Origin: Blastocatellia bacterium AA13
GTDB taxonomy: Bacteria > Acidobacteriota > Blastocatellia > UBA7656
Length of the DNA: 64,000 nt
NCBI GenBank assembly: GCA_003222245.1
Contig: QHVH01000031.1
Coordinates: 24,650-88,649, forward strand
Direction: 5' to 3'
Shown in pieces: positions 2,444 to 44,162 of this stretch (position 1 is its first letter; each line of letters starts with the position of its first letter). A program made the position numbers and the translations under genes. The notes below the pieces were generated by a model, which did not search any database, was not told the origin of the DNA, and saw only the letters and a program-made list of their open reading frames with translations.

Positions 2444-3778
2444 TTGAAACCGGACACTCGACGCGCTGCATCCATCTCCCCGGCCGTTTCAACCGACTTC
2501 GGGCGCGCGTTATTGCGCGAAACCCCTAAACAGGCAGGCATACTTTTTTCCGCCCAGATGCTGTCGCTGGTCATAGGCGTGCTCGCTAACCTGATTCTGG
2601 GAAACGCCATGATCCAGACGGAACTCGGGCGGTTTGTCTTTTGTCAATCAGTGGTGTTGATGGCGGGACTCTTCTTTGAGGTTGGTATCTTTTCGGCTGG
2701 AGCCAGGGTTCTCGCTCTTGTCAAAGAGCCGGAGGAGCAGAAGCGCGCCGTTGGAGCCCTGGTAGCGGCGGCGCTCGTGATTGGAATTCTCTTCGCTGTG
2801 TTCATAGCCGCTGCCTCTTATCCACTCGATCTGATCTTCCATAGAAACGATCGAGCGCTGTTGATGGGAGCGGCGGCCCTTGCTTTTTTTCAGCCGTTTC
2901 AACTGATGATCGAGCAGAGTTGTACCGGCCTCAATCAAATTCAAAGGCTGTCCGCGTTTCAGCTCCTCGCAGCCGCCGCCAATCTGTTGATCCTTGCGGT
3001 GCTGGCGCTGACGGATCGGCTTACAGCCAGCGCCGCGCTGCTCAGTTATCTTGGAGGCCTCGGTATCGCCTCACTGTGGATACTTTCGCGGCTGCGTCCG
3101 CGCTTTCGCGGGCTCGGTCCGTTCGTGCGGCTCACGATGGCTGAGACGAAGAGTTATGGATTCAACATCTATCTCGCCAGACTCACCGGAGCGGCCTCAT
3201 CGCGACTCGATAATCTCATCATCGGCTACTTTCTCGGACGAGCATCGCTGAGCGACGCGCTGCTGGCTTTGTACTCAATACCTCAGCGCCTGGCCGCTCC
3301 CATCGCAACGTTGTCGCGCGCGGTTGGAGTCACCAGATTTCGGGCTTTCGCGGGCTTGCCTCGGATTCCCGCGCGAATACTAAAATGGAACGCGGGATTA
3401 TTGCTCATCGGATCTATCGGCATGGCTTCCGCTGGGCCCGTCGTGCTCTATTACCTGTTTCCAAAGTATCGAGAGGCCGCACCGCTTCTAATCCCATTCA
3501 GCGTTCTGAACTTCTTCGCCGGACTCTTTCAGCCCTACAACAGCTTTCTTGCATCGCATGGCCAGGGAGCGGCGTTGAGGAACGTCGCGGTAGCCGTGAC
3601 CATTACGAGTGTGGTTGGATTGGCAATTACGGTCCCGCGCTTTGGAATAACCGGAGCCGCGTGGACCGGCGCGGTTGCGATGGCTCTAGACTACCTTCTT
3701 CATCTTCACTACTATCGGAAATTCGAAAAGAAAGCGGAACTCGATCTTCATCGCGCCGAACATGCAATCGATGGCTGA
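2444..3778 (+). CDS. polysaccharide biosynthesis protein / oligosaccharide flippase (Wzx-like, MOP superfamily)
   Basis: A 444-aa polytopic membrane protein with 10-12 predicted hydrophobic helices. It sits between asnB and a methyltransferase/glycosyltransferase block, which is the usual position for a Wzx flippase. The true start could be an internal Met. Confidence 0.7.
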   Translation: MKPDTRRAASISPAVSTDFGRALLRETPKQAGILFSAQMLSLVIGVLANLILGNAMIQTELGRFVFCQSVVLMAGLFFEVGIFSAGARVLALVKEPEEQKRAVGALVAAALVIGILFAVFIAAASYPLDLIFHRNDRALLMGAAALAFFQPFQLMIEQSCTGLNQIQRLSAFQLLAAAANLLILAVLALTDRLTASAALLSYLGGLGIASLWILSRLRPRFRGLGPFVRLTMAETKSYGFNIYLARLTGAASSRLDNLIIGYFLGRASLSDALLALYSIPQRLAAPIATLSRAVGVTRFRAFAGLPRIPARILKWNAGLLLIGSIGMASAGPVVLYYLFPKYREAAPLLIPFSVLNFFAGLFQPYNSFLASHGQGAALRNVAVAVTITSVVGLAITVPRFGITGAAWTGAVAMALDYLLHLHYYRKFEKKAELDLHRAEHAIDG

Positions 3779-4613
3779 AAGCACTACATCATCAATAGCT
3801 CCGCCGGATTTGAGAAACGAGTTCAAGCAGAGGGCTCGCGATCAGTGGAGCGCCAATCCATGCGGCGCGAACGCCGCTGATGGATTTGAATACGGCTCAC
3901 GTGATTACTTTGAGGCGATCGAGAAGTATCGCTACGAAGTGTACGCGCCGTGGATGAAACGCGTGATTGGCTTCGACGAATTCGCGGGCAAGAGCCTGCT
4001 GGAGATCGGCTGTGGAACCGGAACGGATTTGTTGCAGTTCGCTCGAGGCGGCGCGAGCGTGACCGGGCTTGATCTCACGCCTCGCAGCATTGAAATCGCG
4101 CGGCGGCGATTCGAGGTGTATGGCCTGCAGGGCAGTTTTGGAATAGGCGACGCGGAAAATCTGGCATTTCCCGACGCGTCCTTCGACGCTGTGTACTCGT
4201 TCGGAGTTCTTCACCACACTCCGCGAACCGCCCGAGCCGTTGAAGAGGTATATCGAGTTCTCCGCCCCGGCGGCCGCGCAATCGTGATGCTTTACCACAA
4301 AAGCTCGCTGCACTATTGGGCGGGACTCGTTTTCAAACACGGGCTGCTTCACCGCGAGCTGTTTCACTCGAGCATTGCCGATATCATGAGCCGCCGCGTT
4401 GAACACGGCTCCGATCACGCGCGGCCGTTGGTCAAAGCCTATACACGCGCCGAGGCTCGCGGAATGTTCAGCGCATTCAGTGGGTGCGAAATAATAGTCG
4501 ATCAGTTGACCCGGCGGGAGCTGCGGCCGTTTGGCGGATTGTTGCCCGATAATCTGTTTCGACGGCTCGCCCGCGCATTCGGCTGGAATCTTATTATTAA
4601 GGCTACGAAGTGA
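3762..4613 (+). CDS. class I SAM-dependent methyltransferase
   Basis: Motif I reads LEIGCGTGTDLL, followed by the post-I acidic residue LDLT and by FDAVYS (motif II). These are typical of the Methyltransf_11/25 fold. Confidence 0.8.
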   Translation: MQSMAESTTSSIAPPDLRNEFKQRARDQWSANPCGANAADGFEYGSRDYFEAIEKYRYEVYAPWMKRVIGFDEFAGKSLLEIGCGTGTDLLQFARGGASVTGLDLTPRSIEIARRRFEVYGLQGSFGIGDAENLAFPDASFDAVYSFGVLHHTPRTARAVEEVYRVLRPGGRAIVMLYHKSSLHYWAGLVFKHGLLHRELFHSSIADIMSRRVEHGSDHARPLVKAYTRAEARGMFSAFSGCEIIVDQLTRRELRPFGGLLPDNLFRRLARAFGWNLIIKATK

Positions 4614-4632
4614 TCCCTGCCCGTTCGCCTCA

Positions 4633-6417
4633 ATGACTCGCCTCGATCCTATTCATAACGACACGCGAACCGGTTCTGCCGTTCGCGCGAACAAGTCGAA
4701 TTCGGATGACAAGAATTCTCCGAAGCAGGTCGTAGCCCTCCTCGACCTGTCCGGAAACAAAGAGCGCGCAGCGGCGTGGGCCGAGTCGGAATTCAATCCG
4801 CGGGCGATTCAATACATCAACAAGGCCGATCTCAAGGGCGGAGCCGCTCGCGAGATGCTGGCCTGTGTGAGAGCGCTGAACCCTCACACATTTGTGGTGT
4901 TCACTTCCGATCTCGACATGCAGAGCGCTCGCGGATCGTTGATGCTCCTGGCACTCTTGTCAGGCGCTCGCGAGATCGTTTTGGCGGACAGCTCCGGGCG
5001 CGTGGTTCGCAGATCGCGGATCGGCGCGGCCCTGGTTGAAGCGCCTCGCCTCGCGATTGAGATGCTGTGCGGATATGCACTGGTCCTTCCATTTTCGTGG
5101 CTGCTGGCAGCCGTGCTCGGGCTAGCCATGAGATTTCGCGAAATTATTCGAACAGACCACGCAATTCAAAGAAGGACCGTCGATCAATCAGGCTCATGCA
5201 ACATCCTCTACATTCGTGCGACTCTTTCAGTCTTGCAAGAAGGCGGCATGTCGACACACGTCGAGGGCTTTCAGGGCGGTATGCTCGCGCTGGGCCATAC
5301 GTTGACACACGTGGAAGTAGGACGCCCAAACGGAACGCCCGAAGTTTCCGGCGCGGCGGTCGGCAACATCTCGGATAGAGTGCGCATTGCTCCCTCGGCA
5401 TTGGTCGGGGCAACCAAGGCACTGTTCGAGCTTTGGAATAATCTGGTGTTCAGCGTTGCAGCGTTTCGATTATTTGACTCGCCGCGCGACTTCGATTTCA
5501 TATATCAGCGCTACAGCAGGTTCAACTTGACCGGCGTATTGCTGAGTCTAACGACGGGGCTTCCGCTTGCGCTCGAATTCAACGGCTCCGAAGTTTGGGT
5601 GAGCAAGCACTGGGATTCAATTGGGCAGATGCCGCTGTTACGGCAATTCGAAAGGCTGAATTTGAAAGCCGCTGACGCCGTCTTTGTTGTATCAGAGGCC
5701 ATGAAGAACTCTTTGACGGCGGAAGGCGTCGACGACGCTCGAATCATCGTCAATCCGAACGGTGTCAACACGGAGATATTCCGGCCTGATTGCGGAGGGC
5801 GGATGATTCGTGAAGAGCTCGCAATCGATGATCAGGTGGTAGCCGGTTTCGTCGGAACTTTCGGACCCTGGCATGGCGCTCCGGTATTCGCCGAGGCAGC
5901 GCGACTCGTAGCCCGGCAAGCGCGCTGCCATTTTCTTTTCGTCGGTGATGGAGACGAGCGCCCTGCTGCCGAACGAATATTGTCACAGCTCCGAATCGGC
6001 GCGTTTACTTTCACCGGGCGCATTCCACATGACAGGGTTCCGTCATATCTTGACGCGTGTGACATTCTGGTCTCGCCGCATGTGCCGTTGGCCGATGGAA
6101 GCGAGTTCTTCGGATCGCCGACAAAGTTATTCGAATATATGGCTATGGCTCGCGCTATCGTCGCCAGCCGTCTAGGCCAGATCGCCGACATTATCGAAGA
6201 CGGCAAGAGCGGTTTACTTGTAGAGCCGGGAGACGTCGCCGCGCTGGCGGGCGCAATCGAGCGACTCTCGAATGACAAGGAGTTTCGAATGGCTCTAGGA
6301 GCCAATGCCAGAGACGTAGTCGAGACCCAATACACGTGGAAAGCGAACGCGTCGCGCGTGGTTGAAACGATGCAGGTTATTGTTCCTGAAGGGGAACGAG
6401 TCAATAGCCGGGGGTGA
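4633..6417 (+). CDS. glycosyltransferase family 4 (GT-B fold) with an N-terminal extension
   Basis: The C-terminal half has GT1/GT4 features: GFVGTFGPWHG, an E-x7-E-like region and FLFVGDGDERP. I placed the start at ATG 4633 (MTRLDP) to avoid overlap with the upstream methyltransferase. The ORF track gives 4531. Confidence 0.7.
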   Translation: MTRLDPIHNDTRTGSAVRANKSNSDDKNSPKQVVALLDLSGNKERAAAWAESEFNPRAIQYINKADLKGGAAREMLACVRALNPHTFVVFTSDLDMQSARGSLMLLALLSGAREIVLADSSGRVVRRSRIGAALVEAPRLAIEMLCGYALVLPFSWLLAAVLGLAMRFREIIRTDHAIQRRTVDQSGSCNILYIRATLSVLQEGGMSTHVEGFQGGMLALGHTLTHVEVGRPNGTPEVSGAAVGNISDRVRIAPSALVGATKALFELWNNLVFSVAAFRLFDSPRDFDFIYQRYSRFNLTGVLLSLTTGLPLALEFNGSEVWVSKHWDSIGQMPLLRQFERLNLKAADAVFVVSEAMKNSLTAEGVDDARIIVNPNGVNTEIFRPDCGGRMIREELAIDDQVVAGFVGTFGPWHGAPVFAEAARLVARQARCHFLFVGDGDERPAAERILSQLRIGAFTFTGRIPHDRVPSYLDACDILVSPHVPLADGSEFFGSPTKLFEYMAMARAIVASRLGQIADIIEDGKSGLLVEPGDVAALAGAIERLSNDKEFRMALGANARDVVETQYTWKANASRVVETMQVIVPEGERVNSRG

Positions 6418-6502
6418 AGCGCAGCGCAGCCCCCGGTATGGTCGAAACTTCCCAATTCGGTGTTCCCTGAACGTAGCGCCAAAGGGCGCGAGCTATGACC
6501 CT

Positions 6503-18631: not shown

Positions 18632-19598
18632 GTTTATTCGTTCCCCATCGAAAGAGTTTCAAAGAGCACCTGAAAGCTAACACAGCGCAACAAATAACGG
18701 CAAGGCATCGCTCATGAACAGGCATCGCTCATGAATGAACGATGCGCGTCAAGCTTTCGCGGCACATAATAGTCTATCCATCGAGTTCCCAGTTCTCGAA
18801 GGTTGATGTCAAAGAGAAGTCGCATGCATTGAATGCTTAACTCGGGCTATAGATTGCCGCGCTACTGCGAAACTCGAAGTCACGTTACGCGAGGAGTATC
18901 GGTCTTCAAGCGACTAGCTCGGTCGAACATCTTGTCTCTCGAGCCAGGTCTGCAGGTTCAAACGTCCCAAGCCAAACAGACTGTCTCCTCCACCAATCCT
19001 TCTGCACTACGGTATCAGCCTGCTCCCTCGGGAACCCAGTCCACCCGCTGTATTTATTTTCGTCAGTAAGCCGAACTTAACTAAGGCCACTTCCCAGATA
19101 CATCACCGCGAGCAAGAGCAGCACTCTATTCAGTCCTCAACAGGCCAGCGGTACTGGGAGCAAACGAGGGCTACATTTTTCGTATCCAGAGGGTACATTT
19201 TTCGACCCGGGGGTCTATTTCTGTTACCCCGGCTCCATGTTCTCCGTCCAAAGACCGAGAGAGTTCGCCGCCAGCACCGCACCTCGCGCTCGTCAAAATG
19301 CCATCGTCGCGAACGCGCTCGGCTGGACTCGCATCTCGCTTACTCACGTCGTTCCGCATCGCTGACGAACTCTTCTTCGTAGTCTCGCGCAATAGCTCTT
19401 CGGACTTCGTGCTGGTATCTCGTCGAGCAGCTCGACTAACTGATGGACTGGGTAGTCTGGGCCACTTTGTCACCTTGATTAGGTGTACTAACAGCGGTAC
19501 GATTCTCCGCCGCTTTTATTGCGATCATTTGAAATTAAGCGCCCGCCCGCAACGATATGGAGTCGGAAACGAAGATAGGCATCGGCTAAGGAGGAGAC

Positions 19599-23674: not shown

Positions 23675-24400
23675 ATGCATTCCGCCAAGGACGCAACGAC
23701 TTTGATTCTTCTTGCGCTCATTGCGTGTCCGACCCTCGCGCTCACGCAGAACAAAAGCAGATCGCAGAGGTTGAAACACTCGCCGGCGCGAACGAGCAGC
23801 ACCGATGAGCTTTCAATCCCTTCGGTTTCCCTCGTCTCTGGAACGCCGGAGTATCTTTCGGGGGAGGCCAATGTCACTGTCAAAGGAAACGAGAATCCCA
23901 TCATCCGTCTCGGCCTGGCAACGTCCGGCGTGACTCTTGTGGAGTTTCCCGCCGCTGACAGATTCTTCGCTCTCCATCCGGGCAACTCTGAGATGGTGGT
24001 TACGATCGACGAGTCCCCCACAAAACAAAACGATCACTTCTTCGTCTTCAGAGCAGGAAGTAACTGTGTTTCACCTCCCGCAGCGAGTTCTTCTACGGGT
24101 CCCGCTGCCTCCATCATCGCGCAAATGGGCTCGGGCATGGTCGTCACTTTTCTTATTTATCCCGTTCGCGAACTCTCACAAATGGCGCACCGCGTAGTCG
24201 TTCTCTATGACCGCGTAGCGGTGGTAGCCGCCCGACGCGCGGCTGGGCTCGCCGTCAATCTCGAAGAGAAAGAGCAAGAACGACAGGAGGGGTCAATAAG
24301 GATTGCCCCCGCGACCGAGCGCTCAAGCACGTCCACGCAGTCCGGCAGCACCAAACGACCAGTCTCGAGATGTAGGCCTGACGGGCCGACTATAAAATAG
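23675..24400 (+). CDS. secreted hypothetical protein (possible VirB9/TrbG-like remnant)
   Basis: Signal peptide MHSAKDATTLILLALIACPTLALTQ. It lies directly downstream of the VirB8-like remnant. The assignment rests on position and length alone. Confidence 0.4.
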   Translation: MHSAKDATTLILLALIACPTLALTQNKSRSQRLKHSPARTSSTDELSIPSVSLVSGTPEYLSGEANVTVKGNENPIIRLGLATSGVTLVEFPAADRFFALHPGNSEMVVTIDESPTKQNDHFFVFRAGSNCVSPPAASSSTGPAASIIAQMGSGMVVTFLIYPVRELSQMAHRVVVLYDRVAVVAARRAAGLAVNLEEKEQERQEGSIRIAPATERSSTSTQSGSTKRPVSRCRPDGPTIK

Positions 24401-24648
24401 CCATCAGGGGCAAGCGCGTAGCGCGCCGCCCCTGGTCACGGCCCCCACACCCCTCTAGCGCTGAAGGCGCGACATAAGCGCTTCATTGCCGCGCTGCGCA
24501 AAAATTAACCATTTCTTGCGAAACGTTCACTTCGCACCTTTCAGTGCTCCGAGCCCTCATCTATTTCCGAGGATAATTACTGGGCCTTCATTCGCTCGCG
24601 CGCCTATAAAACCTGCGCCTTGGTATCCGAAAATATTTAAACTCCCGG

Positions 24649-24739
24649 GTTCCCTCGGAAACACCTTCTCTCTTCGTACCGGGGGCTGCGCTTCGCTGGC
24701 CCGCGGCTACTGACGCGTTCCCTTTCAGGGAACAATCCC
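24649..24739. repeat. solo copy of a roughly 114-bp two-hairpin repeat (same family as the tandem array at 28590-28900)
   Basis: TCTTCGTACCGGGGGCTGCGCTTCGCTGGCCCGCGGCTACTGACGCGTTCCCTTTCAGGGAACAATCCC is about 90% identical to the array units. It contains the CCGGGGG..CCCCCGG and GTTCCCT-TTC-AGGGAAC hairpins. Confidence 0.7.
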
Positions 24740-24778
24740 AAAATTCATTCAAGCTATGTTGTCACAACGACACCTGGT

Positions 24779-25852: not shown

Positions 25853-26285
25853 AATTGATTCTTCCGATGCCGGGATAAAGCCGGCTGGTTGCATTGAATC
25901 AAAGTCCTCACACGTCGAGGTTTCCATCTTGGAGCACGGCTGCGGGGCCTGAGAAGGATTCGGCAATCAAGACATCGGGAGCACGATCCAACTTCGTGGC
26001 GAGTACGTCGGACAGCTCGCGGTAAGTGCGAGATGGCGCCCAAGGGACCGCGACGACGTGCGAACTTGCCCATTCGGGCTGGCGAGCGACGAAGCCGCTG
26101 ATGGTTGTCCCGAAGGGACAATCGGCAATAGCCCACCAGTTCACTGGTGGGTTCGTCGGGTAATTTGATCGAGAAGTGCCGAAGGCACGGCTGACTTGTT
26201 GTTTCAGAGCGCCGCAAGAGGACCACGCACATATTGCAGATTTCCGATGTGGTTCAAAGCCTCCACATACGAACTACATCAGCCG

Positions 26286-26522
26286 TCCCTTCGGGACTAG
26301 ATCGCCGCAGCGCTCTGGGACCCACCGATGAATCGGTGGGCTACTTTCAGACGATCCCTACGGGATTGACGTCTCTGCGCCAAAAATCTCTAATGGCCAA
26401 ACTCCAGCCACCGATGAATCGGCGGGCTCGAGCTTGGACAATGGCGGACCTGGGAGCGCAGGCATCTTGCCTGCTTCCCCCACCGATGAATCGGTGGGCT
26501 ATTAATCGAGCATCCCTTTGGG
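26286..26522. repeat. cluster of six short perfect hairpins, including three copies of CCCACCGAT-GAA-ATCGGTGGG
   Basis: The six hairpins are:
- GTCCC-TTC-GGGAC at 26286-26298.
- CCCACCGATGAATCGGTGGG at 26321-26340.
- ATCCC-TAC-GGGAT near 26355-26367.
- CCACCGATGAATCGGCGG at 26408-26425 (one mismatch).
- CCCACCGATGAATCGGTGGG at 26479-26498.
- CATCCC-TTT-GGGATG at 26508-26522. Confidence 0.6.
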
Positions 26523-26587
26523 ATGCCAATCGATCTGGTATATCCACTGATCTGGGACGCTGATCTCGGGTGTCAACTGACGGAGAG

Positions 26588-26848
26588 TTATGCCGCCGAC
26601 TGCTGATCGATTTCCCAGCCAGGAAATACAAGCACCGCCGGATGGCACTTGAGCGCGCGAGCCAGAATCTTGGCCCGCTCCAACCCTAGTCTTACGCGAT
26701 CATTCTCGATTGCCGAGATAGTCGACTGTGGTATGCCGGTTAGCTCGGCGAGTTGATTCTGACTCAGATACTGAAGCTCTCTAATGATCCGCACAGATTC
26801 GCCCACTGACACCTTCATACGACGCTTTGCAGAACGAAACTGACTCAT
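26588..26848 (-). CDS. XRE-family helix-turn-helix transcriptional regulator
   Basis: HTH_3 signature: IRELQYLSQNQLAELTGIPQSTISAIENDRVRLGLERAKILARAL. Confidence 0.7.
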   Translation of the reverse strand: MSQFRSAKRRMKVSVGESVRIIRELQYLSQNQLAELTGIPQSTISAIENDRVRLGLERAKILARALKCHPAVLVFPGWEIDQQSAA

Positions 26849-26900
26849 CTAAGGCCTCCGATCGTGTCGGATGTCAGTGTCTATGAGGGTGGAGATCAAG

Positions 26901-27164
26901 TTACTTTACCCCCTCGGATTCACGCAGGTTCCGGACCCATGCGGTGCTGTCCCGCATGTCGTCGCGATCTTGCCACATCCCTATGAACCGTTCATCGTGT
27001 AATTCAGAGCCCGCCGGTTGCGTGGCGGGCCGGCGTCCACCATACCGCTGATGCAAGTATGCAACAAATCCTTCCACCTCCCGTAGGGCTTCTTGTGGCA
27101 AAGAACGTATCTCGCGCAATATCTCATCAGGTGTCATGGTTCCTCCACCGACATTTTCTCTCAT
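26901..27164 (-). CDS. DUF2281-like small protein (putative orphan antitoxin-type addiction module component)
   Basis: MTPDEILREIRSLPQEALREVEGFVAYLHQRY, then a C-terminal ...MWQDRDDMRD tail, as in small antitoxin-like proteins. No cognate toxin gene is adjacent. The start could be the internal Met at about 27137. Confidence 0.45.
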   Translation of the reverse strand: MRENVGGGTMTPDEILREIRSLPQEALREVEGFVAYLHQRYGGRRPATQPAGSELHDERFIGMWQDRDDMRDSTAWVRNLRESEGVK

Positions 27165-27287
27165 TCGAAAGAGATGTCAACCTGAGCGGCCAACCGACTT
27201 GCGTCACCGGGCCGCGCATGCCAAGACAACCAGGGGAACGAATCGGCGTAATGGGAAAACTACCTGCGCGGCTCGTTCCTAAATCTC

Positions 27288-27508
27288 TCAGTTGTGTGAG
27301 AGGTCACTATTCTCTTCTATAAGTTTCGTTTTGCCTTGTTTGAATTCGGCCAAGGCTTCCTTCGCAAGGAATGCTAGCTTGTCCTGTGAATTAGCGAATG
27401 CGTCCGCCCAACGCCCCTCTGAGGCAAGATCACTCAGCAGCATTTCGGCAAACGCATCCTGATCCTCGCCCTGGGAGTCGGGACGCTTCTTCGAATGCCT
27501 TCTCCAGA
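27288..27508 (-). pseudogene. ParD/RelB-like antitoxin gene with a frameshift (orphan)
   Basis: Hand translation of the minus strand gives MTKLLEKAFEEASRLP in one frame. The rest, (Q)GEDQDAFAEMLLSDLASEGRWADAFANSQDKLAFLAKEALAEFKQGKTKLIEENSDL, is in the +1 frame. It was not called by the ORF track. Confidence 0.35.
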
Positions 27509-27701
27509 AGTTTGGTCATTTGTCTTATCACCTCGCCGGCAACTTGAATCAGAAACTTATCGAACTTTTGGCGTCGAGCACCATCGATTCAGAGATTGCA
27601 CAACGTTGGAATGAGCCGCAGCGGGCGGTATGCGGAACACGGAAAGAAAAGGGCCGCATCATGAACAGGACTACTGCCCGCGCTCCAGTTCCAACCGTGA
27701 G

Positions 27702-28016
27702 TTATGCGACGTTCAGTGGCTTGATTCGGTCAATCTTCCTCTTGGCGGATCGAGTCGCTTCCCAAAGGTCCAGCGCGCGCTGGGCATTGAGCCAGAATTC
27801 AGGCGAATTACCGAACAACCGCGAGAGGCGGAGGGCCATTTCCGGGCTGACAGCCCGCCGCTCGCGAAGCAACTCGTTGATTGTTTGGCGAGAGACCCCC
27901 AGTGCTTCAGCAAGGGCCGAGACCGTCAGGCCGAAGTCCGGCATGAAGTCCTCACGAAGCATCTCGCCCGGATGCGTCGGACGAACCTGCCTCTCTCCAA
28001 CGTTCACAATGCTCAT
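27702..28016 (-). CDS. higA: HigA-type antitoxin (XRE-HTH addiction module antidote protein)
   Basis: MLREDFMPDFGLTVSALAEALGVSRQTINELLRERRAVSPEMALRLSRLFGNSPEFWLNAQ is the canonical HigA/VapI signature. The gene lies 14 nt downstream of the toxin gene. Confidence 0.8.
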   Translation of the reverse strand: MSIVNVGERQVRPTHPGEMLREDFMPDFGLTVSALAEALGVSRQTINELLRERRAVSPEMALRLSRLFGNSPEFWLNAQRALDLWEATRSAKRKIDRIKPLNVA

Positions 28017-28029
28017 GCAACACCTCGTC

Positions 28030-28311
28030 TCAATGGTAGTCGGTCAGTTCCACATCGTAAGCATCACCGTCGACGAACCGAAAGCAGATGCGCCACTGAT
28101 CGTTGACAGCAATGGAATGTTGTCCCTTCCGCTCCTGCTTGAGTTCATGAAGGCGGTTGCTAGGAGGAACCTTCAAGTCGCCCAAGTGGGTCGCGAGGTC
28201 AAGGTATTCGAGCTTGCGCGTCGCACGCCTCGCGATATCCGGAGGAAACCGTCGCGACTCGCCAGTTGCATACAGCTCTTGCGTTTGGCGGTTCGCGAAC
28301 GTCTTGATCAC
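28030..28311 (-). CDS. higB: HigB-type toxin (RelE/ParE superfamily plasmid-maintenance killer protein)
   Basis: 93 aa beginning MIKTFANRQTQELYATG..., with ...HELKQERKGQHSIAVNDQWRICFRF. The toxin-first, antitoxin-second order is typical of higBA. Confidence 0.8.
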   Translation of the reverse strand: MIKTFANRQTQELYATGESRRFPPDIARRATRKLEYLDLATHLGDLKVPPSNRLHELKQERKGQHSIAVNDQWRICFRFVDGDAYDVELTDYH

Positions 28312-28589
28312 TGGTCAACTCTGATCTGTCACGTGATGCGTGTCAAGCCAGGAGACATCAAAGTAGCATAACGCCAGCGTCACCGGGCCGCGCATACCAA
28401 GATAATCAGGGAAACGAATCGGCGTAATGGGAAAACTACCTGCGCGCGGCTCCGGTGCACGCGGAGTTGGGCATCTGTCCACAATTGCGACAGTATCCGG
28501 TCGTATTCCGCATGGGTGTCTATCCAGAACCACACTATCGTATCGTCGGACTTTGCTCCGAGTGCTCGCCACCCTATGCCTGAGAACGG

Positions 28590-28900
28590 CTTGGGCGGGG
28601 AATCAAATCCTCCCTCGCACCGGGGGCTGCGCTTCGCTGACCCCCGGCTACTGGCGCGTTCCCTTTCAGGGAACAATCCCAAGAAAAAGATTCAAATCCC
28701 TGCGTTCGTTCTGGAACCAAATGCTCCCTCGCACCGGGGGCTGCGCTTCGCTCGCCCCCGGCTACTGACGCGTTCCCGTTCAGGGAACAATCTGAAATTA
28801 TCCAACCTTCGATGTTTCTCGTTCTGGAAATAAATTCTCCTTCGTACCGGGGGCTGCGCTTCGCTGGCCCGCTGCTATCCCGCTAGTCCCGGTAGCGTGT
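28590..28900. repeat. tandem array (about 2.7 copies, 114-bp period) of a novel two-hairpin repeat
   Basis: Unit starts fall at about 28611, 28725 and 28839. The core is TCCCTCGCACCGGGGGCTGCGCTTCGCTGACCCCCGGCTACTGGCGCGTTCCCTTTCAGGGAACAATC. The third copy diverges after CGCTTCGCTGGCCC. The inter-core segments share CGTTCTGGAA. Confidence 0.75.
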
Positions 28901-28963
28901 TGATTGACGGTATTCGAGTCAGAGAATAGAATCTTCCCGGCTCTGAGTGGATACGGAGGCCGA

Positions 28964-30256
28964 ATGCTACAGCCGCAGTTGATTACTGAATCTGAGTTGA
29001 ATAAAGCAAGGGAGCTCCTCACCGCTCTCAAACGGTTCGCCATGTCCGGGGAACTGAGAAAAGAGTTTGAACTATCGCTTAGCGATTCACTGGATATCGA
29101 TCAGCCTCCTGACATGCACGAGACGGAAGCCTTGCGGGATTGGTTCACCTTCGAATGGTTGGACGACGACGACAACGGCGTGATTGATCGCTTTATAAGC
29201 GAAGGCAACCTGTCCACGGACGAGAATGACTTGCTTCTGGATTGGGTTGACTCGTTCTCCGGAGTCTTTGAAGTACAGGTCGCCACTCGCAGCTCGATTC
29301 GCGTGCGGGATCTCGAGACCGGAGATCTCTACGAGATTATTCCCGATGCGACGACCGATACATCGTCGCTCAGACATGGACAGTTTGTTAACGCACGGTT
29401 GCTGCTACTGGGTGATCGCTTCATTTTCTCGTATCCGCCAATGCTCATGCCCAATCGAAGCGCGGCTATCGAAGCCGTTCAGAGAAATCGCATTTACAAC
29501 TCCCTGAACTCGCCCGAGGTTCACGAAGAGATGATCGGGGAGATTCGCGAAGCGTTCTGCGAGTATTTCGGATCGGACGAGACAACGGTCACTCCAGAGG
29601 CGCTCTCCGAGACGATCCAAGGGTTTATCAAATACATGTTCTTCGTCCGCCTCGACCCGGAAACCGACACGACGATGGCGGAATCCTTCAAATCCCAGTT
29701 CAATGAAGACCTGTGGATTCCCGCGCTGGGCCCAATGCCGCCCGAGATCTCGAATGCCAGCGAAGTTACAATCCTCTGTGACGAGTTTGACGGGATAATG
29801 TTCCTTCCGGAGTACTCGCTCTTTAAAAGAGTTTTTGAGACACCGAATCCCAACTCGCTCGTACCCGCGTGGCGTGAGCTCGTTTGGGCTTACATAAAAG
29901 ATCCAGCCATTCCGACGGCAGCCTTCGAGCGGGTCGCAGAAAAGCACCCGAAACGAATGGAAAAGATAATGAGCGAGCTCCTCGAAGAAGAGGACTTTTC
30001 CATTAACCATCTCTATTGCGCCCTCCTTCACTTTAAAGAGCCCGCCGAAGGTTTTGACGACCTCAAAGACGATGAGAAGCTCTGGGATCTCTTCGACGGT
30101 CAGAAAAAAATGGCCAAGGCCGTCAAAGCGCCCTCGACGGCAGCGAAGTCGAAATCAACCCGCGCTCGCGGCGCGAAACCGGCTTCAGGCCGCGCGCGAG
30201 TGACAGCTTCCCCGGCCGCCGGAGGAACGAGAAAGAAAACCAGAGCCCGATCGTAG
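28964..30256 (+). CDS. hypothetical acidic protein with a Lys/Ala/Arg-rich histone-H1-like C-terminal tail
   Basis: ATG at 28964 has GGAGG 4 nt upstream. The ORF track's TTG at 28904 would read through the repeat array. The body is acidic (WLDDDDNG, EEEDF) and the tail reads KKMAKAVKAPSTAAKSKSTRARGAKPASGRARV...RKKTRARS. Confidence 0.6.
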   Translation: MLQPQLITESELNKARELLTALKRFAMSGELRKEFELSLSDSLDIDQPPDMHETEALRDWFTFEWLDDDDNGVIDRFISEGNLSTDENDLLLDWVDSFSGVFEVQVATRSSIRVRDLETGDLYEIIPDATTDTSSLRHGQFVNARLLLLGDRFIFSYPPMLMPNRSAAIEAVQRNRIYNSLNSPEVHEEMIGEIREAFCEYFGSDETTVTPEALSETIQGFIKYMFFVRLDPETDTTMAESFKSQFNEDLWIPALGPMPPEISNASEVTILCDEFDGIMFLPEYSLFKRVFETPNPNSLVPAWRELVWAYIKDPAIPTAAFERVAEKHPKRMEKIMSELLEEEDFSINHLYCALLHFKEPAEGFDDLKDDEKLWDLFDGQKKMAKAVKAPSTAAKSKSTRARGAKPASGRARVTASPAAGGTRKKTRARS

Positions 30257-30997: not shown

Positions 30998-33004
30998 ATG
31001 AACAGAGACGCTTCAAATTTTCTCCCCGTAATCATGCTGGGATTCATCGCATTCGTAATCCTGGTCTACATACTGCGCAAAATTCTAGTCAACGTAGGCG
31101 CGAGAGAGATCGCTATTAAAGAGCGGCGCTACTTTGGCAGGCGGATGCCGCCCGGCCGAGTCGTCGCCACTGAAGGCGAGGTGGGTATTCAGGCAGACGT
31201 GCTGAAACCCGGTCTTCACGTCATCAAATATCCTTTCGAGCGCGTCGTGCGCAAAGTGCCGCTCATCGAAATCAGAACCGATGAAATAGGCGTGGTCGAA
31301 GCGGTTGACGGCGATCCCCTTCCCCCGGGCCGGGTGTTCGCCCCCGATCGAGCGCAAAACGCTCACAATAACTTCCAGGACCCCATTGCTTTTATCAAAA
31401 GGGGCGGCGTAAAAGGCATTCAGTTGAGAACGCTCCCGCCGGGCTTATGGCCGATTCACCCTTATCTGTTCAGGCTTTCGATATCCAAAGTGACTATGAT
31501 CCCTCCCGGAAAAATCGGAGTAGTCACCACCGCCGACGGCGCTCCGCTGGATGCCGGGCGGCTGCTGGGCAAGGCTGCGCCGGGACATCTCAATTTTCAG
31601 GACGCGGAACAATTCATTTCGGGCGGCGGACAGAAAGGGTCTCAGGTCGAGATATTGACCCCCGGCACATATCGAATCCTGACGGACTCGATTCCCATCG
31701 ACGCCAGTCAGGGCGAGCGCAAGCCGGGGCTCTTCACGGTGCGCCTGTACGAGGCAACGGTCATCGGCGAGAATCAGGTGGCGCTTGTCGAAGCTGTCGA
31801 TGGCTCGCCGCTCAACCCGCGCGACTACGTTGCGGCGACGCTCGACGGCCATGACAATTTTCAGGACGGGCACGAGTTCATCGCTCGCGGAGGGCAGCGC
31901 GGTCCCGCGGCTGAAGCCGCCAAACGCCTGGATAAGCTCGGCGAAGACGATCGCACAATGAAGGAGATCGAAGAAGAGATTATGTCGACCGATCCGGCCG
32001 ATCGGCGGCTTGATGAAGGCGCGCACGAGGCCTATGTCGTTCCCGACGGCTACAGAGGCATACAGGAAACCGTAGTCGGGCCGGGCCGGTACTACGTCAA
32101 CACTCTCGCGATCACGCCGATAATCATTCCGACTACCAATCAGACCGTTGAATGGACCTCCGGAGAGGTCGCCAACACCTTCAATCCGTTTGAAGTCATC
32201 TCCAAGGACGGCTTCTCGATGCAGCTCGAGGTACGCGTCGTATTCCGGGTGAAGCCCGAAGACGCTCCGTTCATGGTGGCGAAGATCGGCTCGATCGACC
32301 GCCTTATTCAAAACGTGATGCATCCGCTGATCGATTCGATTTTCCGCAACCAGGCTTCTGAATCGTCCGCGATGGCCTATCTGCAAAATCGACACGAAGA
32401 GCAGGAGCGGGCTGAGGCTCGGGTTCGCGCTCATCTGCTCAAGTACCACGTCGACGTGGTAAACGTCTTAATCTGTCACATACATCTTCCGGAAGAGTTG
32501 ATGAAGACTCAGACCGAGAAGATTCTCGCCGAGCAGCGACAGAACATGTTCAACGCTCAACGCGAAGCGGAACAGAAGCGCATCGAGCTCGAAAAGACTC
32601 GCGCTCACGCCGACAACCAGCGTGACTTAATGGCGGCAACCGTGGGCGTCGAGATCGCAGGCAAACGCGCGGAGCAGCGCAAGGCCGAGGGTGATGGCGA
32701 GGCCCACTACATTCTTGCTACCGGCAAGGCGGAAGCCGAAAAGGTAAGGCTGATGGGAGAGGCGCAGGGTGTCGCATATCGCGAACAGGTCGCGGCTCTC
32801 GGCGCGCAAGGTGTTTCGGTGATCGAAACGCTTCGAGTCATCGGCGAGAAAAACGTTCGCATAACTCCTGACGTATTGGCGTCGGGAGGCGGCTCGGGAG
32901 ACGGAACAGGCGGGCTCGGGACGCTGCTGCTGTTGAATCTCTTCCGCGAAAAGATCACGGGATCGCCAACATCGGACAACGGCAGCATGCTTGCTGGAAA
33001 GTAA
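30998..33004 (+). CDS. SPFH/band-7 (flotillin-like) membrane protein with three N-terminal NFQD-containing repeats and a C-terminal coiled-coil
   Basis: N-terminal transmembrane helix (FLPVIMLGFIAFVILVYIL). Three repeats of about 95 aa each carry NFQD...F(I/A).GG..G.Q...L.PG.Y. An SPFH-like block follows (EVRVVFRVKPEDAPFMVAKIGSIDRLIQNVMHPLIDSIFRN), then an EA-rich coiled-coil. Confidence 0.7.
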   Translation: MNRDASNFLPVIMLGFIAFVILVYILRKILVNVGAREIAIKERRYFGRRMPPGRVVATEGEVGIQADVLKPGLHVIKYPFERVVRKVPLIEIRTDEIGVVEAVDGDPLPPGRVFAPDRAQNAHNNFQDPIAFIKRGGVKGIQLRTLPPGLWPIHPYLFRLSISKVTMIPPGKIGVVTTADGAPLDAGRLLGKAAPGHLNFQDAEQFISGGGQKGSQVEILTPGTYRILTDSIPIDASQGERKPGLFTVRLYEATVIGENQVALVEAVDGSPLNPRDYVAATLDGHDNFQDGHEFIARGGQRGPAAEAAKRLDKLGEDDRTMKEIEEEIMSTDPADRRLDEGAHEAYVVPDGYRGIQETVVGPGRYYVNTLAITPIIIPTTNQTVEWTSGEVANTFNPFEVISKDGFSMQLEVRVVFRVKPEDAPFMVAKIGSIDRLIQNVMHPLIDSIFRNQASESSAMAYLQNRHEEQERAEARVRAHLLKYHVDVVNVLICHIHLPEELMKTQTEKILAEQRQNMFNAQREAEQKRIELEKTRAHADNQRDLMAATVGVEIAGKRAEQRKAEGDGEAHYILATGKAEAEKVRLMGEAQGVAYREQVAALGAQGVSVIETLRVIGEKNVRITPDVLASGGGSGDGTGGLGTLLLLNLFREKITGSPTSDNGSMLAGK

Positions 33005-43761: not shown

Positions 43762-44117
43762 CTAGTCACCTCGACAGCCGCAACAACAAAGATATTGTCT
43801 GGCCGGATCAGCGGCATGATGTTCCATCCGCCTTCCAAACGCCAGTCGATTTGATAAATATCCGGGTGTAACGATGGCGAATGAGAATGGACGCTCAGTA
43901 GAAGACAAAGATCCGAGAGATGTTCAACCTGATTCAAAAGCAATCAAAAATAATTTCCTGGGTTGTATTTTTCGCCGCCTATAGCGGTCATTGGAAGCTC
44001 GAACTATGCTGAGGCTCCGCGCCATGATGGAAGATCATGCCCTGACTCAATTACCGGAACGGTTCAAATATAGTAAACCGCGCGCCGCATGTTTTAGTTT
44101 GTATCTAACGTTTCAGT

Positions 44118-44162
44118 TTGCGACGTAACGCCAATCGTCAGGTTGCGACGTAACGCCAATCG
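44118..44162. promoter_or_regulatory. two 20-bp direct repeats (TTGCGACGTAACGCCAATCG, 25-bp period) upstream of the copper operon promoter
   Basis: Exact copies at 44118-44137 and 44143-44162, about 150 bp upstream of the -35 element. Confidence 0.45.

Follow-up and report, generated by a model that had tools for sequence, protein, structure and literature searches.

A 64,000-nucleotide stretch of contig QHVH01000031.1 from Blastocatellia bacterium AA13 (hereafter the window, meaning the whole stretch that was analyzed) carries, between two divergent gene groups, a head-to-tail run of hairpin-bearing units spaced by about 114 bp. The question raised by this locus is what kind of element builds such an array. 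A first-pass annotation, made from the letters alone, had named three options, namely a structured small-RNA array, the remnants of recombination sites of a cassette system, and a new element of the type of repetitive extragenic palindromic sequences (REPs) or miniature inverted-repeat transposable elements (MITEs). The last is the one borne out here, as the units are multi-copy and dispersed, and in other genomes IS200-like Y1 transposase genes have this module as their inverted flanks. We consider it highly probable that the units are REP/MITE-like, non-autonomous repeats, that a Y1/HUH transposase spreads them by acting on single-stranded DNA hairpins, and that the arrays arose through slippage or unequal recombination.

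A three-hairpin module and the transposase genes it brackets

Each complete unit is a module of about 100 nt in which two small hairpins frame a central one, the latter being followed by CTA(C). The central hairpin, CCGGGGG-CU-GCG-CUU-CGC-UGA-CCCCCGG, was present in minimum free energy (MFE) folds and in the consensus structure, and it supplies the imperfect stem-loop palindrome of about 20-40 nt that characterizes REPs. The unpaired foot tag of REPs, of the GT[AG]G type, was likewise found: the foot of the hairpin reads CTAC (GTAG on the opposite strand) in three window copies and CTAT in two.

Copies in other genomes were sought with the pattern CCGGGGGCTGCGCT-N6-9-CCC-NNN-GCTA, which was scanned over 185,579 species-representative genomes. 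The scan returned 64 loci, and the 62 that were plausible placed the central motif in four phyla. Twenty-four of the 64 lay in a single metagenome-assembled genome (MAG) of the Armatimonadota, the others being distributed among Acidobacteriota (Terriglobia and Blastocatellia), Planctomycetota (Phycisphaerae), and Verrucomicrobiota. The matches in Rickettsiales (L036) and Burkholderiales (L045) had no flanking hairpins, resembled chance matches, and were excluded from the model described below. At the plausible hits, a small hairpin (typically GCCCC-TCC-GGGGC) was followed after about 18 nt by the central hairpin with its CTA and, after about 8 nt more, by the second small hairpin. This shared layout also describes the window copies, whose small hairpins are GTTCC(C)...GGGAAC-type; in the array the 5' small hairpin is degenerate. 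The CTA of the scanned loci was imposed by the search pattern, but it was also seen independently of that pattern, in an Rfam consensus (GGCUA) and in window units resembling the Rfam family Acido-Lenti-1. A pattern for the window's own subfamily yielded a further 17 metagenome loci, from soil samples of a similar kind. The many dispersed singletons, dimers, and clusters expected of REPs were thus observed, as 9 units in the window, 17 metagenome loci, and 24 loci in one MAG.

In the Phycisphaerales MAG fen_1344, two inverted pattern hits about 540 bp apart enclosed an open reading frame (ORF) of 148 amino acids, which matched Pfam Y1_Tnp (E=1e-22) and the NCBIfam IS200/IS605 model. By tblastn, a Y1_Tnp gene (PF01797, E=1e-22 to 1e-24) adjoined the pattern hit in 5 of the 64 loci, and inverted-repeat analysis found module copies in inverted orientation on both sides of the gene in all five. 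A test set was then assembled by protein similarity alone. Its four homologues (61-71% identity) were all flanked by full-length matches to R1, a covariance model built from a 40-sequence alignment of the module. In each of the four, about 10-50 nt lay between the end of the (-) unit and the start codon, the (+) unit started about 10 nt past the stop codon, and the 5' small hairpin pointed toward the gene on both flanks. In total, nine gene sites (eleven loci) were examined, and every one held a 148-residue IS200-like Y1/HUH gene bracketed by inverted whole modules. Since gene and units are separated by gaps of about 10 nt on one side and about 10-50 nt on the other, we take the units to be the element's own ends and not targets that were there beforehand. 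Insertion of a transposase gene into pre-existing REP doublets was considered and is unlikely, as such tiny gaps, which recur among distant homologues, leave no room for separate insertion sequence (IS) ends.

The Y1 paralogues within MAG fen_1344 were 46-78% identical to one another, and their flanks were inverted repeats. For one homologue, the gene context was the same in each of four contigs inspected from a set of eight. At locus L090 (1-6447), the flanked Y1 gene stood between a gene for a RepB primase and a gene for a TrwC/TraI relaxase-helicase; this copy is carried by a conjugative or mobilizable element, a possible route of cross-phylum transfer.

When the encoded protein was searched against the sequences of solved structures in the PDB, the closest were IS608 TnpA (E=5e-7) and ISDra2 TnpA, and no match to E. 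coli TnpA-REP was obtained at E<=1. Alignment of ten flanked proteins, 148 residues in length, revealed D52, H53, H55, W92, Q93, Y112, Q116, and H120 as invariant and H119 as present in at least 90%, together with a conserved C-terminal F..E...L...G...DE.YLW. The motifs DH[VI]H, WQ, and Y---Q--HH, with this C-terminal tail, are those given for TnpA-Y1 subclass 1.2 (PMC6006769). The MP[DN]H[VI]H and Y..NP motifs that mark the RAYT proteins of REP systems were absent. Subclass 1.2 has been published as being without terminal hairpins (PMC6006769). An incomplete literature search found no later paper tying the subclass to repeats, which is weak evidence of novelty.

We propose that a transposase encoded elsewhere in the genome would recognize the hairpins in single-stranded DNA, for example at a replication fork. 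Cutting and rejoining beside the foot of the hairpin, with its CTA(C) tag (GTAG on the opposite strand), would spread units into intergenic DNA. Clusters would subsequently expand or contract as a unit plus its flanking DNA underwent slippage or unequal recombination, which could yield the head-to-tail 114-bp array. Both the activity of the transposase on the units and the single-stranded-DNA route are suggested by analogy with IS608 and TnpA-REP, and the source genome presumably holds the cognate transposase.

Several results count against this proposal. With two flanked transposases as tblastn queries, no Y1 gene was detected in the 64-kb window, in keeping with the first-pass annotation, which had noted no transposase nearby, nor did the 17 same-subfamily metagenome loci contain one; the GTTCCC-type units therefore have only a presumed cognate enzyme. 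No pair of empty and filled sites was found, and so no single insertion event was shown. Judged by their sequence motifs, the associated proteins are not canonical RAYT/TnpA-REP proteins, and the subclass to which those motifs point has been published as having no REPs (PMC6006769). Finally, the central stem is invariant in the alignment, but this carries no weight because the search pattern forced the invariance.

Acido-Lenti-1 and an RNA interpretation

The Rfam family closest to the module is Acido-Lenti-1 (RF01687, gathering score 37 bits), which was typed as a small RNA (sRNA) by Weinberg et al. 2010 (PMC2864571). The Rfam search proposed in the first-pass annotation gave a divided answer. 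The array and solo units matched no Rfam family, whether the gathering threshold or E<=10 was applied, and are not RF01687 members on that basis, whereas related units do reach the RF01687 gathering score: two sibling units in the window scored above it, a third falling below, and so did flanks of the transposase genes at L092 (48.5 bits), L004 (41.1 bits), and L025 (38.5 bits). Because the L025 and L004 flanks have central hairpins of the CCGGGGG type and nonetheless reach the RF01687 score, the array units and Acido-Lenti-1 are best treated as subfamilies of one repeat superfamily.

Acido-Lenti-1 shares with the array units a hairpin, GGCUA, a linker of about 12 nt, and a small hairpin with a YUUCGR-like loop. 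The array units differ in having a longer central loop and a 3' stem of 7 bp. The Rfam model covers two of the three hairpins of the module, and the Acido-Lenti-1 "sRNA" appears to be part of a transposase-end repeat, namely its central and 3' hairpins. According to the first-pass annotation, the element would be ordinary if it proved to be a known IS or MITE end or a known Rfam family. This is essentially what was found, as related copies form the ends of transposase genes and attain the Acido-Lenti-1 gathering score.

These Rfam matches also speak for a different interpretation, in which the units are small structured RNA genes or cis-regulatory RNAs and the array expresses a long variant of Acido-Lenti-1. 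The folds are somewhat more stable than those of shuffled sequences, with z-scores of -1.5 to -3.5. The covariation check that the first-pass annotation had called for likewise came out positive: in the 40-sequence alignment, 67 cells of the small hairpins had changed on both sides of the stem compared to 23 in shuffles, and 88.6% of cells were paired compared to 42-59% when the partners were slid. Such covariation is, however, equally expected of hairpins that act in single-stranded DNA, and the two strands fold about equally well. The units lie on either strand, some forming inverted doublets and others flanking transposase genes in inverted orientation, and the array units themselves lack an Rfam match. 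No unit has a terminator-like T tract, and the downstream gene has its promoter-like site beyond the array, which is thus upstream of that site. We regard the RNA interpretation as quite unlikely, and the first-pass option of a structured small-RNA array is not favored.

Copies, arrays, and neighboring genes in the window

A direct-repeat search of the window recovered four in-register copies, at 24658-24737, 28599-28678, 28713-28792, and 28826-28905, with start-to-start distances of 3941, 114, and 113 nt. Relative to the copy at 28599-28678, the others were 83%, 93%, and 65% identical, in order of position, the last being partial. The invariant 20-mer ACCGGGGGCTGCGCTTCGCT had five matches in the window at three or fewer mismatches (0.01 expected), and the 23-mer of the second hairpin had three (0 expected). 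R1, run on the window with filters off, reported nine units at four sites (Table 1).

Table 1. Module copies and a promoter-like site in the window
Feature	Position	Strand	Evidence
Dispersed copy where two glycosyltransferase genes meet	6373-6471	-	R1 54.2 bits
Diverged unit, (-) partner of the solo unit	24365-24477	-	R1 41.8 bits, E=3e-7
Solo unit, (+) half of an inverted doublet	24640-24741	+	R1 72.4 bits
Sibling unit, Acido-Lenti-1 subfamily	26097-26195	-	R1 30.7 bits over the full model; RF01687 41.8 bits at 26106-26151
Sibling unit, Acido-Lenti-1 subfamily	26278-26376	+	R1 27.9 bits; RF01687 37.4 bits at 26321-26367
Partial sibling unit, central and 3' hairpins only	26475-26534	+	R1 16 bits; RF01687 33.7 bits at 26479-26525
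Array unit 1, full module in which the 5' small hairpin is weak	28563-28682	+	R1 77 bits, E=1e-14; repeat search; fold
Array unit 2, full module sharing 93% identity with unit 1 across 80 nt	28697-28796	+	R1 72.8 bits
Array unit 3, truncated, degenerate	28804-28904	+	R1 33.7 bits; 65% identity
Sigma-70-like site (TTGACG, 17 nt, TAGAAT)	28904-28932	+	Consensus match only, 10/12

These data allowed the original description of the locus to be revised. The three head-to-tail units are real and span 28563-28904, but the exact 114-bp period that had been assigned to them is in fact 114 and 113 nt, with a third unit that is truncated. Two hairpins had been ascribed to every unit, and both do appear in MFE folds. 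Unit 1 has the central hairpin CCGGGGG..CCCCCGG, then CTAC, then the 3' hairpin GTTCCCT-TTC-AGGGAAC; unit 2, however, reads GTTCCCG in place of GTTCCCT, and unit 3 keeps the central hairpin and CTA but has lost the 3' small hairpin. The solo unit also proved genuine, yet it does not stand alone, being half of an inverted doublet. One array and one solo unit do not make up the full inventory, which includes the copies at 6373-6471 and 24365-24477 and the three siblings of the Acido-Lenti-1 type. The array escaped Tandem Repeats Finder, because only about 80 of each 114 nt are conserved between units in the window. The same program listed short two-copy tandem repeats, unrelated to the module, at 44113-44162, 18703-18735, and 3083-3121, with periods of 25, 17, and 21 nt.

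In the doublet that contains the solo unit, the 5' hairpins face one another over 162 nt. The two longer siblings form a second (-)/(+) doublet with an inner gap of 82 nt. Both doublets are REPIN-like, and their inward-facing geometry, as detected with R1, matches that of the transposase-gene flanks elsewhere. The three siblings have the three-hairpin layout of the array units with another central hairpin, the copy at 26475-26534 being partial, and lie inside the block of toxin-antitoxin and Ntn-hydrolase genes. The (-) copy at 6373-6471 overlaps the last 15 or so codons of the ORF at 4531-6417.

The diverged unit lies where the window differs from a contig that is 95-96% identical to it (L088). 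Window positions 24351-24405 comprise 54 nt, compared to 116 nt at 2694-2810 of that contig, and the L088 counterpart of the unit, beside this local indel, scored only 25.6 bits with R1. The length difference is a repeat-associated indel polymorphism between strains.

Tandem arrangement was common, and is normal for the window's subfamily, in its 17 metagenome loci. R1 identified head-to-tail arrays of two to six units with a period of about 108-115 bp, as well as (-)/(+) doublets; six units were present in L074 and L077 and three each in L075 and L081, and the period fell to 75 bp where neighboring units shared one small hairpin. A protein 100% identical to the 430-residue product encoded next to the array in the window is encoded on eight contigs and occurs in JGI sample 3300026325 and ENA ERZ27315208, and every sister-strain contig that reaches across the array has it at an unchanged position. 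All linkers were alike in L069 and L070, and the whole 114 bp is therefore the repeat, the linkers not being unique spacers. In the window and in L068, the linker between units 2 and 3 differs from that between units 1 and 2. One scaffold (L065) had at least four units around an N gap, and three assemblies start at or inside the last unit, so that the repeat array accounts for the assembly breaks of this organism at the site. The array is a variable REP cluster and not a repeat-spacer array. Tandem reiteration of units with flanking DNA segments is described for GTAG-tagged REPs in PMC3733652.

The regular period, the position at the edge of a toxin-antitoxin block with strain-variable content, and the unlike linker between units 2 and 3 of the window would all suit a reading of the units as integron attC-like recombination sites or as a CRISPR-like array with unusually long repeats. 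We find this barely credible in view of the uniform linkers of the sister strains and the units dispersed singly and in inverted pairs, the same findings that uphold the first-pass statement that the geometry is not that of CRISPR. A conserved part of about 80-114 nt also lies beyond the 24-48-nt repeats with unique spacers of a CRISPR array, which was rejected on this ground. With respect to attC, GTTCCCT and AGGGAAC lie next to each other as the two arms of a simple hairpin; they are not distal R''/R' cores, and RYYYAAC/GTTRRRY is unmatched. No integrase, cas, or transposase gene occurs among the annotated neighboring genes, as had been noted at first pass, although this is not an exhaustive scan of the window for intI. 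With neither attC-type core sites nor an integrase among these neighbors, the proposal of cassette or recombination-site remnants was rejected.

In the Armatimonadota MAG JBKBRF01, the units are parts of larger mosaic repeats. Short tandem CCGTCTCT-like 7-8-mers lie directly 3' of the unit at L006, L013, L019, L024, L026, and L046, and at other loci, for example L002, L030, L050, and L064, the unit is followed by a second conserved palindromic module, GATCGCCGGCAGTTGACTGCCGGCGG.

Examination of the genes around the array placed it in the gap between a divergent higBA operon (HigB, PF05015, with a helix-turn-helix antitoxin) and a conserved three-gene cluster encoding the 430-residue protein (28964-30256), a 227-residue protein, and a 668-residue Band_7/SPFH protein. 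The 430-residue protein had no Pfam match in a local scan; its 66 homologues, mostly from Blastocatellia-type soil metagenomes, carry PF25948. An exact-sequence look-up of the Band_7 protein (30998-33004) was without a match, and sister contigs annotate a longer product of 722 residues. The sigma-70-like site immediately follows the array, with 32 nt left to the ATG at 28964, and its sequence is identical in the sister-strain contigs. If this site is used, the array lies outside the downstream mRNA.

Whatever their origin, the units could be kept for a host function, as insulators or attenuators, stabilizers of mRNA ends, or platforms for nucleoid proteins, with the array modulating the promoters of higBA and of the gene for the 430-residue protein. 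Functions of this kind are summarized for E. coli REP/BIME elements in PMC6006769. The retention of the array at one site in every spanning sister-strain contig points in this direction, as does conservation of the central hairpin across phyla, which the search pattern partly forced. Against it, unit number and linker sequence vary among near-identical strains, the units occupy heterogeneous positions (between divergent genes, between convergent genes, over a gene end), and terminator-like tails are missing. Although compatible with an origin as transposase-spread repeats, a retained host function seems unlikely, and the array probably has no dedicated function at this locus.

Two further features of the surrounding region were observed. 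A 70-bp direct repeat, 94% identical between 27201-27270 and 28377-28446, lies about 37 nt upstream of a gene for a DUF2281-like antitoxin and about 66 nt upstream of higB. It was seen only in syntenic sister-strain contigs and is therefore a local duplication outside the present family; it may be a promoter or operator region shared by both operons. Between the XRE gene and higA (window positions 26500-28320), the content of small genes varies between the window and L065-L070 despite an identical 430-residue protein, and L070, for example, has genes for proteins of 93, 117, and 76 residues with no counterpart seen in the window. The repeats thus bound a toxin-antitoxin block of variable content.

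Relation to known repeat systems

Most likely, the window array is an ordinary cluster of the REP/MITE type and a new member of the REP/REPtron-TIRtron kind. With the REP and REPIN sequences of E. coli and Pseudomonas and their RAYT proteins (PMC3116915, PMC3733652, PMC6006769) it shares a short GC-rich imperfect palindrome, the unpaired GTAG-type foot tag, and many dispersed, mostly intergenic singletons, inverted doublets, and tandem clusters. As in a REPtron, a Y1/HUH gene is flanked by inverted copies, here seen in other genomes. The unit differs from a REP in being a three-hairpin composite of about 100 nt and not a single palindrome of 20-40 nt, and the protein differs from RAYTs in its motifs and in having no sequence match to E. 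coli TnpA-REP. The hosts differ as well: REPs are found mainly in Proteobacteria, whereas the present module occurs in Acidobacteriota, Planctomycetota, Verrucomicrobiota, and Armatimonadota.

A second comparison is with the TIRtrons, in which Y1 genes (TIRYT) are flanked by long, sometimes double-palindromic inverted repeats (Di Nocera et al. 2013, PMC3733652). By the published description of those repeats, long inverted repeats bearing palindromes flank the Y1 gene in both cases. Both also have moderately abundant solo copies arranged as dimers and clusters, and both count Acidobacteria among their hosts. The TIRYT proteins aligned in that paper carry the RAYT-like MP[DN]HVH and Y..NP, which the proteins studied here lack.

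The Pfam Y1_Tnp and NCBIfam IS200/IS605 matches link the transposases to the family of IS608 and ISDra2. In classical IS200/IS605 elements, however, the subterminal hairpins are asymmetric and the IS as a whole recurs in near-identical copies, whereas the genes described here have inverted repeats of about 105 nt as flanks and are far outnumbered by solo units.

We lean, with limited confidence, toward a broader conclusion, that the module is an unrecognized REP-like partner of TnpA-Y1 subclass 1.2, forming a widespread REPtron-like system in four phyla, and that Acido-Lenti-1 is a fragment of a DNA repeat and not an RNA gene. The covariance model R1 can be used to mask or annotate the module in soil metagenomes. 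Acido-Lenti-1 as an end repeat of Y1 genes would bear on the annotation of such Rfam matches. Subclass 1.2, described as repeat-less, would then have repeats in phyla poor in complete genomes, and a relationship of the REP-RAYT type would reach beyond the Proteobacteria.

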